A stretch of DNA of 64,000 nucleotides from Candidatus Hodarchaeota archaeon. Lineage in GTDB: Archaea; Asgardarchaeota; Lokiarchaeia; Sigyniarchaeales; SOKP01. The stretch is from the NCBI GenBank assembly GCA_048887225.1, contig JBHLJY010000005.1:1-64000 (forward strand), read 5' to 3'. A program made the translations under genes and the position numbers. Each line of letters opens with the position of its first letter. The stretch's first letter is position 1. The notes under the pieces are model-generated. The model was not told the DNA's origin, made no database searches, and saw only the letters and a program-made list of their open reading frames with translations. Below are positions 39,668 through 42,086 of the stretch, in pieces.

Positions 39668-41005
39668 TTGCTGAATTTATTACCTATTATGATGGATTAC
39701 GAAAAATGGTTAAAATTTAAAGACTTAGAATATCGTGAAGGAATTCTATATATGGCAGATGTCAATACTGTAGATATAGCTAAAACATATGGCACACCAA
39801 TTTATGTTATTAACGAGGATTTGATTAGAAAAAGATATAAAACATTAAAGAAGGTTCTCAACTCAGTTTATAAAAACAACCAAGTTCATTTTGCGATGAA
39901 AGCTAATTCAAGTTTATCTATTCTGAAAATACTTAAATCCGAAGGTGCTTATTTTGATTGTACTTCCACAGGAGAAATTTATACATGTTTTAAAGCAGGA
40001 ATATCATCTGAAAAAATAATATATACAGGAAACATGTTTACTAACGAGGATTTTAAATTCGCTGTAGAGAATGATATATTGGTCAATTTAGATAGTATCA
40101 GCCAAATAAAGAGACTTGCGAAGGTATACGATGATTTAAGAAAAGAAAAAAACTTAATTTCTTTTAGAATAAATCCAGAATTTGGAGCCGGACACCATTC
40201 ACACGCGATAACGGCAGGAAAAGACATAAAATTTGGTATTTTAGAAGATCAAGTAATGGAGGCTTATTCAAAAGCTAAAGAATATGGATTTAAAAAATTT
40301 GGTACACATATTCATGTAGGTTCTGGTATTCTCGATCCTAATGATTTTGATAAAGCAAGTGAAAAATATCTAGCGATTATCACGAAATTAGCAGATACAC
40401 TTGATATTCAGTTTGATTTTGTGGATTTTGGAGGAGGATTAGGCATTCCATATCGTCCAGAAGAGGATCCTTTGGATTTAGAAGTATACAAGGAGGTTAT
40501 TATAAAAAAGTTTAAGGAATTAATTGAAAAAGGAGATATGAATCAAGCAAATTTTAAAATTGAACCAGGTCGTTTTCTGACAGCTGAAGCGAGTATAATT
40601 TTAACACAAATTAATACCATTAAAGACAACGGATATAAATTATTTGCAGGAGTAAATGCTGGATTTAATACTTTAATGAGACCTATACTTTATAACAGTT
40701 ATCACCATATAATATTATGTAATGAAAATGAAAGAAAAAAACGAGTAAGATATGATGTTGTTGGACCAATTTGTGAATCCGGTGATGTTTTGGGAAAAGG
40801 AAGGCTCTTACCAGAGTTAAGGGAAGGAGATTTTTTAGCTATACTCGATACGGGGGCGTATGGGTATACAATGAGTAGTCCATATAATTCAAGACCTAGA
40901 CCTGCGGAAGTTTTAATCAATGATGGAAAATCTTATTTAATAAGAAATGCAGAAAATTATGATGACCTTCTAGACCAACAGATTATTCCTAAGCATTTAA
41001 AATAA
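39668..41005 (+). CDS. lysA: diaminopimelate decarboxylase
   Basis: FAMKAN, KFG, HVGS, GGG, EPGR, GPICESGD, YNSRPRP; true start probably ATG 39689. Confidence 0.95.
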   Translation: MLNLLPIMMDYEKWLKFKDLEYREGILYMADVNTVDIAKTYGTPIYVINEDLIRKRYKTLKKVLNSVYKNNQVHFAMKANSSLSILKILKSEGAYFDCTSTGEIYTCFKAGISSEKIIYTGNMFTNEDFKFAVENDILVNLDSISQIKRLAKVYDDLRKEKNLISFRINPEFGAGHHSHAITAGKDIKFGILEDQVMEAYSKAKEYGFKKFGTHIHVGSGILDPNDFDKASEKYLAIITKLADTLDIQFDFVDFGGGLGIPYRPEEDPLDLEVYKEVIIKKFKELIEKGDMNQANFKIEPGRFLTAEASIILTQINTIKDNGYKLFAGVNAGFNTLMRPILYNSYHHIILCNENERKKRVRYDVVGPICESGDVLGKGRLLPELREGDFLAILDTGAYGYTMSSPYNSRPRPAEVLINDGKSYLIRNAENYDDLLDQQIIPKHLK

Positions 41006-41130
41006 TTTTCAAGATTAAATTTCTAATTTTTTAATCAAAATAAATAAATATTTTATTCATCTTTTTTATATTAAGATAAAATTATAAAAACGAGAACGAT
41101 TAAGGCTTGGATACCCTTTAATCCTTCTTT

Positions 41131-41193
41131 ATGAAGATTAGGCGCAACGAAATCTGCTTAAAACAGATTAATGAGAATACTGATCTGTCCTGA
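41131..41193 (+). ncRNA. box C/D sRNA (2'-O-methylation guide), possibly with a 5' hairpin from about 41098
   Basis: C ATGAAGA 41131; D' ACGA 41147; hairpin AATCTG/CAGATT; C' ATGAGAA 41171; guide TACTGATCTGTC; D CTGA 41190; GC-enriched island in an AT-rich gap. Confidence 0.65.
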
Positions 41194-41252
41194 TTATTTT
41201 TTATAATTTTATCTTATTTTCTTTTTTGAAAAAAAGTAAAATAGTTGTAGAT

Positions 41253-42086
41253 TTATAAATTTAAGACTTCACGTGTATTATATATCTTATTTTCTCTAGC
41301 TTTAGATATAAATTTTATAGCGGTTATTGACCCATTGGCAAAACACATTCTACTATGAGCTTGATGTTTTAATTCGATTCGTTCACCAGGACCAGCGTAT
41401 AAAACAGTATGATCACCAACTATATCACCTGCGCGGATAGAATGAACGCCTATTTCGTTTTTAGCGCCAATTAACCTTTGATTAGGTCCTAAGTTGCGAC
41501 CAAATTTTGCTATATCGTTAAATTCACTCCCAATTGTATCACCTATAATTTTTCCAATGGTTAATGCCGTCCCAGAAGGTGAATCTCGCTTCCTATGATG
41601 ATGGGCTTCGATTATTTCTATGTCCCAATCTTCTAAATAATTTGTCAAAATAGACACCATTTTGAAAAAAATATTTACGCCTGTAGCCATATTTGACGAA
41701 ACAACAGCTGGCGCTTCATTTTCTTTCACTAATTTCTCAAATTCTTTAAAGAATTTTTCAGAAAGTCCAGTAGTTCCAATTACACAACGGATTCCATTCT
41801 TAACACAGATCTTACAATTATTCTCTGTTGCTTTTGCGATTGAGAAATCCACAGCAACATCTGGATTTGTATTAACTATAATCTCTTGAAGATTTTCAAC
41901 ATTACTAATTATTAATTTATTAGGATCTTTAGTGCCAGCTATATTGCCTAACATATCACCAATATTACTTACATCACAAGCAGCAACAACTTCAATCTCA
42001 TTATCTTCTAAAGCTAACTTGCTAATTAATCTACCCATTGAGCCATTTGCGCCTAAAATTATTAATTTAATCAAATAAAACACCAC
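41253..42086 (-). CDS. dapB: 4-hydroxy-tetrahydrodipicolinate reductase
   Basis: GANGSMG, DFS, GTTG, EAHHHRKRDSPSGTA, RAGDIVGDH. Confidence 0.95.
   Translation of the reverse strand: MVFYLIKLIILGANGSMGRLISKLALEDNEIEVVAACDVSNIGDMLGNIAGTKDPNKLIISNVENLQEIIVNTNPDVAVDFSIAKATENNCKICVKNGIRCVIGTTGLSEKFFKEFEKLVKENEAPAVVSSNMATGVNIFFKMVSILTNYLEDWDIEIIEAHHHRKRDSPSGTALTIGKIIGDTIGSEFNDIAKFGRNLGPNQRLIGAKNEIGVHSIRAGDIVGDHTVLYAGPGERIELKHQAHSRMCFANGSITAIKFISKARENKIYNTREVLNL

Follow-up and report, generated by a model that had tools for sequence, protein, structure and literature searches.

Introduction

The yeast snoRNA snR56 is the guide for Gm1428 in helix 34 of the 18S rRNA, and this nucleotide corresponds to Gm1490 in human and Gm1431 in Arabidopsis (PMC2794176; PMC4344503). 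In human, Gm1490 is guided by SNORD25 (PMC13507652). Plasmodium and Dictyostelium carry a modification at the equivalent helix 34 position as well. Primers published for the S. cerevisiae 18S rRNA (Z75578) cover positions 1422-1440, ATAACAGGTCTGTGATGCC, and 1426-1441, CAGGTCTGTGATGCCC (PMC3940700). The yeast rRNA thus reads C1426 A1427 G1428 G1429 (PMC3940700), and G1428 is the first G of CAGG.

Among archaeal guide RNAs, sR32 (PCAsR32) of the hyperthermophilic crenarchaeon Pyrobaculum calidifontis has the D guide TACTGACCTGCG in front of a D box written ATGA (Dennis et al. 2015, PMC4644070). The published RNA reads ...GTGAAGA TACTGACCTGCG ATGA, with a 12-nt spacer (PMC4644070). According to our parsing of the published sequence and its alignment with the Pyrobaculum 16S rRNA (ACGGCAGGUCAGUAUGCC), N+5 of this guide falls on the same G of CAGG. 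Since sR32 uses the same register, the helix 34 site is not specific to Asgard archaea. sR32 is compact, being 49 nt long with a 3-nt D'-C' loop, and carries two 12-nt guides, the other of which has its target about 20 nt downstream. It lacks the outer stem and the 5' hairpin of the Asgard RNA described below, and similarity between the two is not evident beyond the guide and the boxes. A neighbouring Pyrobaculum sRNA, sR23, targets the C two nt upstream of the helix 34 G.

The archaeal sR12 and the eukaryotic snR70-SNORD43 are a C/D sRNA and a LECA-age snoRNA that act at equivalent SSU positions, at another site than the one considered here (helix 44, Cm1639), and the authors were undecided between orthology and convergence (PMC3511168). 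The LECA snoRNA survey of Hoeppner and Poole (2012) gives no archaeal counterpart for U25/snR56 (PMC3511168). Its own screen gave only sR12/snR70, and a few weaker cases had come earlier from Gaspin and colleagues (PMC3511168). A cross-domain equivalence at the U25/snR56 site thus seems to be unreported in the searchable literature.

In this study, we analysed a 64,000-nt stretch of DNA from a Candidatus Hodarchaeota archaeon (contig JBHLJY010000005.1, positions 1 to 64,000), hereafter the window, in which an unannotated box C/D sRNA had been predicted from the sequence alone. Conserved boxes, the 12-nt C'-D spacing, a K-turn-compatible geometry, covarying helices and the presence of Nop5, fibrillarin and L7Ae genes bear out this original prediction. 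As judged from comparison with its relatives, the locus is a genuine, conserved and hitherto unannotated family of predicted box C/D sRNAs with an atypical architecture.

Results

Location and architecture of the element

The sRNA element lies on the + strand between two convergent ORFs, 39668-41005 (+) and 41253-42086 (-). This is the convergent arrangement that had been described; the gene names lysA and dapB are calls of the original prediction. No ORF of at least 40 codons overlaps the sRNA region. The core with the C, D', C' and D boxes occupies window positions 41131-41193 (+). All four boxes and the internal hairpin were found where they had been predicted, whereas the outer stem P1 and the helix P2a below the 5' hairpin had been missed. 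The features of the locus are as follows.

41040-41072 (+): AT-rich upstream region with two conserved TATA-like blocks, candidate promoter elements
41073-41090 (+): 5' arm of P1, the outer 18-bp stem, AAGATAAAATTATAAAAA, pairing with 41198-41215
41092-41129 (+): 5' domain P2, composed of helix P2a and hairpin P2b
41092-96 / 41125-29 (+): helix P2a, double-sided changes in 3 of 5 pairs
41098-41105 / 41116-23 (+): hairpin P2b, GATTAAGG / CTTTAATC, double-sided changes in 6 of 8 pairs
41131-41137 (+): C box ATGAAGA, RUGAUGA with A at position 5
41138-41146 (+): D' spacer TTAGGCGCA, 9 nt, family consensus GUUGGCRUW
41147-41150 (+): D' box ACGA instead of CUGA, ATGA in nearly all homologs, degenerate but conserved
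41151-41169 (+): stem P3, AATCTG/CAGATT (41151-56 / 41164-69), 6 bp, closing C'/D', with a variable loop
41171-41177 (+): C' box ATGAGAA in the best register, ATGA invariant, exactly 12 nt to the D box
41178-41189 (+): D guide TACTGATCTGTC, 12 nt, N+5 being C41185
41190-41193 (+): D box CTGA, invariant in 16 aligned homologs
41198-41215 (+): 3' arm of P1, TTTTTATAATTTTATCTT, containing T-runs

New features of this RNA are the 18-bp outer stem, the 5' hairpin with its invariant GGAUACCC loop, the stem closing C'/D' and the 9-nt D' spacer. The spacer between C' and D is exactly 12 nt, as is canonical, whereas in 34 of the 35 distinct homologs the spacer from C to D' has only 9 nt instead of the canonical 12. 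In the same 35 homologs, ATGA and GA of the C box are invariant (G3, A4, G6 and A7) with A, T or G at position 5, and the D box has a single CTAA variant. The P3 loop varies in length, which gives 12-23 nt from D' to C'. No short terminal stem flanks the C and D boxes; in its place there is P1, with the 5' hairpin domain between P1 and the C box. The C box is flanked on its 5' side by the 3' strand of P2a, and a 4-nt linker connects the D box to P1 on the 3' side, so that the C/D K-turn would sit at a three-way junction with P1 and P2 as its arms. Such an arrangement would resemble a k-junction.

The loop of P2b is 10 nt long (CTTGGATACC, 41106-15) and carries the conserved GGAUACCC, whose last C (41116) closes the stem. 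GATACCC of this loop is invariant in 16 homologs, and the P2 hairpin is also found in a different family (G026). A search for an rRNA complement of the loop gave nothing convincing in 16S and one 10/12 match in 23S, which was taken as chance. The loop motif UUGGAUACCC (41106-41116) has a same-sense likeness to the 16S helix 24 loop UUAGAUACCC (GAUACCC; position 743 of the G006 16S); this may be a coincidence, or mimicry of a protein-binding site.

The two TATA-like blocks lie at about 41040-41052 and, as TTTTTTATAT, at 41063-41072, and are partly conserved in the alignment; they are a candidate promoter. Both the 5' hairpin (41098-41123) and the TTTATA-like box upstream of the sRNA (41065-70) are present as described in the original prediction. 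A TATA box at 41065-70 would set the transcription start near G41092 and leave the 5' arm of P1 untranscribed, which sits uneasily with the covariation seen in P1 at the RNA level. The upstream AT block would set the start near 41070, and either this block or read-through from lysA would put P1 inside the transcript. T-runs occur within the P1 3' arm (41198-41215) and again at 41216-41228, and those at 41198-41228 are candidate archaeal termination signals. As for the protein partners, the Nop5 and fibrillarin genes are adjacent on contig C13, and two L7Ae-family genes are on C2.

Conservation and covariation

BLAST against 40 relatives found the element at 70-88% identity in 15 same-family genomes, and their alignment shows little or no variation in the boxes and in most of the D guide. 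The whole structure of four helices has 90.8% of its cells paired and double-sided changes in 21 of the 37 modelled pairs. None of 500 shuffles reached the observed values, and slid controls had at most 58% of cells paired. Among the individual helices, P1 has 93.6% of its cells paired with double-sided changes in 9 of 18 pairs, and P3 has 95.8% with double-sided changes in 3 of 6. The single-sequence fold has a z of -5.5.

The original prediction had named synteny and conservation among relatives as a check. A covariance model built on the P1/P2a/P2b/P3 structure and run on 131 genomes of the family matched 106 of them with E values from 1e-18 to 1e-31, mostly in one copy, and the sRNA follows lysA on the same strand, 40-60 nt 3' of it, in 12 of the 19 lysA loci fetched from relatives. 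The only significant matches in the window were the element and its own palindromic echo, the latter weak and on the minus strand. Matches in sister families of the order were weak or absent, and a pattern search of five further genomes (two of f2, both single-contig, one of f4, and two of f1 without a model match) gave no match.

Additional copies were seen in some genomes. L052:1924-2060, L058:27-140 and L056:3008-3107 are truncated 3'-half copies running from D' to the P1 3' arm without a C box; they sit 1.3-1.5 kb from the full copy and are preceded by the apparent end of another copy (ATCTGCACTGA). In G058, a diverged paralog (L066:1130-1244) lies 370 nt 5' of the main copy. It has the P2 hairpin (GGGCUGGAUACC) and a canonical C box, ATGATGA; its D' spacer is another one (GATAGCGAG), and its D guide (AACTTGATCTGCT) departs slightly from that of the main copy.

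Over all helices, G.U exceeds A.C by 41 to 12, and this excess points to selection on the + strand RNA and not on a DNA palindrome. The distinction matters for P1, which is a perfect inverted repeat over 16-18 bp and could be read at the DNA level, as repeats that belong to an invertible or mobile segment and are homogenised by recombination, with no RNA helix being formed. Partial 3'-half duplicates 1.3-1.5 kb away in some relatives would fit such a segment, and the MITE-like sRNA elements known in Pyrobaculum provide a precedent (PMC6009581). However, the element is single-copy, it is conserved across many genera, and its orientation relative to lysA is constant (12/12). In P1 itself, G.U stands to A.C as 17 to 3, and such a bias of the mismatches towards + strand G.U is unexpected under DNA-level homogenisation. 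That P1 is a DNA repeat of this kind is very improbable.

The position between convergent genes and the tight synteny with lysA would also suit a structured 3' end, or terminator, of lysA and dapB, in which the conserved block has an AT-rich palindrome as its core and the boxes are incidental. P1 is a near-perfect palindrome with a weak score on the minus strand too, and the T-runs could end archaeal transcription. The inner 107 nt, however, are conserved beyond the level of a spacer, with invariant boxes, a near-invariant 12-nt guide and three covarying inner helices. The guide and its target, described next, bear on this reading as well.

The D guide and its target in helix 34

No 16S or 23S genes are assembled in this genome (G000), despite its 98% marker-gene completeness. 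The pairing was therefore judged on the rRNAs of relatives, namely the same-genus G006, which itself carries the sRNA, and the same-family G016. In both, the D guide pairs with 16S GGCAGGUCAGUA at 12 of 12 positions, 10 of them Watson-Crick and 2 G.U. Against every 16S and 23S of the relatives tested, the D guide matched this segment best, and in 4,884 nt of same-genus SSU and LSU rRNA no other site is fully paired. All eight archaeal 16S of relatives that cover the region contain the complementary helix 34 segment put forward by the original prediction, GGCAGGUCAGUA(U). An earlier pairing statistic, which counted G.U as a full pair and gave a z of about 2, was too lenient for a U-rich guide and was replaced by a permutation test on fully paired sites. 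In this test, 33 of 3000 permuted guides found an equally good fully paired site, and for the guide variant of G009, with 11 Watson-Crick pairs, 6 of 3000 were as good. A strict scan found 82 modules of C', 12 nt and CTGA in the genome, and the sole strong rRNA match among them was this element. A relaxed, snoscan-like genome scan gave mostly chance matches inside genes and was set aside.

In the pairing with the rRNAs of relatives, C41185, at N+5, forms a C-G Watson-Crick pair with the first G of CAGG, the nucleotide that had been derived from the D+5 rule. Alignment with E. coli rrsH identifies it as E. coli position 1197, in the 3' strand of helix 34. The 16-nt CAGGUC...GCCC segment gives an ungapped alignment of E. 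coli, Asgard archaea and yeast, so that the position and the register are those of SNORD25 (Gm1490) and snR56 (Gm1428), as the original prediction had stated; the yeast 18S coordinates and published site tables agree. The guides of some congeners have a mismatch at N+9 (ACCGAUCUGC, ACAGAUCUGC).

Two observations were made on the rRNA genes collected here. The sole 16S fragment of the Asgard bin G011, on L030 (G011:C106:3345-4170), starts GAGTTTGATCCTGGCTCAG and is a bacterial 16S, so that the contig is probably contamination. The 23S genes of family f1 (L036, L038, L039 and L041) are 3.3-3.5 kb long, compared with about 3.1 kb in the sister family, which is consistent with the enlarged expansion segments reported for Asgard archaea (PMC7594248).

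The same guide in other Asgard families

The C'-guide-D module was searched for in 400 genomes of the phylum with the pattern RTGA-5N-CTGAYCTGYN-CTGA, one mismatch being allowed, and with a reversed control pattern. It was found in 165 of the 400 genomes; the reversed control gave about a dozen matches. By family, the module is present in 4/4 genomes of f11, 13/19 of f19, 6/6 of f21, 5/7 of f24 and 3/3 of f26, and it is rare or absent in f13 (0/31), f18 (0/12) and the sister family f2 (1/14). G269 and G157 each have the sRNA and a matching 16S in their own genome.

Guides of genus g49 have A in place of G at N+3 (...CCUAUA before CUGA), and at the facing position the 16S of four congeners carries U, not C (GGUAGGUCAGUA). 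In terms of the predicted duplex, this change from G-C to A-U is guide-target covariation, and it is the strongest single piece of evidence. Neither this covariation nor the strand-specific asymmetry of G.U over A.C would be accounted for by a 3' end of lysA and dapB, and the guide module recurs without P1 in unrelated contexts of other Asgard families. It is thus extremely improbable that the conserved block is a terminator with incidental boxes.

The RNAs at L095-L100, L105, L106, L108 and L110 have the same guide for the helix 34 3' strand (ACUGAYCUGC) beside a CUGA box, but they differ from the RNA of the window in being short and canonical, with two working guides of 12-13 nt and without P1 and P2. 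The shared guide stands at D' in some Asgard lineages and at D in others. Its partner is complementary to the 5' strand of helix 34 (GGAGGUGCAUGG) and is of the AUGCACCU type in L096-L100, L105, L108 and L110 and UUGGCGACGACA in L095 (one family). Depending on the spacer length, N+5 of the AUGCACCU-type partners falls on or beside the equivalents of yeast U1269-G1271. We treat these predicted sites as adjacent, not identical, to the snR55/snR40 cluster (Um1269, Gm1271).

The D' spacer

The D' guide had no identified target in the original prediction, and scans of rRNA and tRNA agree with that. The consensus of the 35 homologous spacers scored 7.89 against 16S and 23S, compared with 7.91 for the null, and 162 of 200 permutations were at least as good. 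The tRNAs gave no target either; ARAGORN called only 18 of more than 60 nt in this genome (G000). An early lead, the 16S segment UUUGCCAGC about 80 nt upstream, was dropped because the spacers did no better than permuted ones.

The D' spacer is similar to the initial part of UUGGCGACGACA, the 12-nt guide of family f8 that pairs with the helix 34 5' strand. It can form 7 pairs with CGCCAGU of that strand, and only 4-5 in the variant of the window, UUAGGCGCA. The D' spacer therefore looks like a vestigial, decaying remnant of a second helix 34 guide. A search for a separate sRNA with the AUGCACCU guide in this genome gave matches only inside coding sequence. With its D' spacer reduced to 9 nt and no target detected for it, the RNA is effectively single-guide.

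This state of the second guide bears on what the RNP does at helix 34. Reviews link a dual-guide, bridging arrangement to chaperone activity (PMC7994747), and the other Asgard families do pair the same guide with a second guide to the opposite strand of helix 34. The box C/D RNP might thus be mainly an rRNA-folding chaperone, with methylation secondary or absent, although methylation would be compatible with it; the additional P1 and P2 domains, which are unnecessary for methylation, could be taken in the same sense. In this family, however, the second guide is degenerate and the bridging is lost, and yet the D guide is still nearly invariant. Moreover, N+5 always forms a C-G pair of the Watson-Crick type and the guide has the exact 12-nt spacing, both of which methylation requires. 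A role mainly in folding is therefore improbable.

Discussion

Taken as a whole, the locus is very probably the gene of a + strand box C/D guide RNA for methylation of the helix 34 G, with an elaborated P1/P2/P3 architecture. L7Ae, Nop5 and fibrillarin would assemble on the RNA, and the D guide (41178-41189) would pair with GGCAGGUCAGUA in the 3' strand of helix 34. Fibrillarin would then be placed over the nucleotide opposite N+5 and would transfer a 2'-O-methyl group to the G that corresponds to E. coli 1197, yeast G1428 and human G1490. The C'/D' motif forms a true K-turn closed by P3, and not a K-loop or a short loop. P1 may juxtapose C and D in an AU-rich RNA, or act in processing or stability. 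We infer transcription, RNP assembly, methylation and the roles of P1 and P2 from the sequence and its conservation.

The Asgard sRNA shares with SNORD25 and snR56 the target nucleotide, the box C/D chemistry and the N+5 rule. It differs in its genomic setting, as the eukaryotic genes are those of intronic or independent nucleolar snoRNAs. Rfam gave nothing for the whole window at gathering thresholds. In a cmscan of window positions 40950-41300 at E<=10, neither RF00054 nor RF01188 (clan CL00049) was matched, and the only match was to an unrelated lncRNA. The other Asgard versions had weak generic C/D matches only, such as DdR1 at E 0.85. The sole sequence in common is the guide, which is dictated by the target, and homology to SNORD25/snR56 is therefore inseparable from convergence. 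The word analogue, which the original prediction had offered for the relation to the eukaryotic snoRNA, is supported, whereas descent of SNORD25/snR56 and the Asgard sRNA from a common ancestor cannot be shown by sequence comparison.

A broader scenario is conceivable but rather unlikely. The helix 34 guide RNA would be a single lineage that already existed before TACK archaea, Asgard archaea and eukaryotes separated, with SNORD25/snR56 as its direct descendant, and the dual-guide Asgard form, which addresses both strands of helix 34, would be ancestral to separate eukaryotic snoRNAs. If this were true, the ancestral form would have acted beside the snR55/snR40 sites on one strand and at the snR56 site on the other.

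Archaeal guides and LECA-age snoRNAs are known to have very few rRNA methylation sites in common. The present case, from the archaeal phylum nearest to eukaryotes, adds a shared site in helix 34 of the decoding region. It is backed by the guide-target covariation and by the same register in a crenarchaeal guide. It thus offers a concrete case for the continuity of one RNA-guided modification across eukaryogenesis, the evolutionary implication being unproven. The outer stem, the 5' hairpin and the closed C'/D' motif suggest that mesophilic, AT-rich archaea can build C/D RNAs unlike the compact model derived from thermophiles, and automated sRNA finders will miss RNAs that are elaborated in this way.
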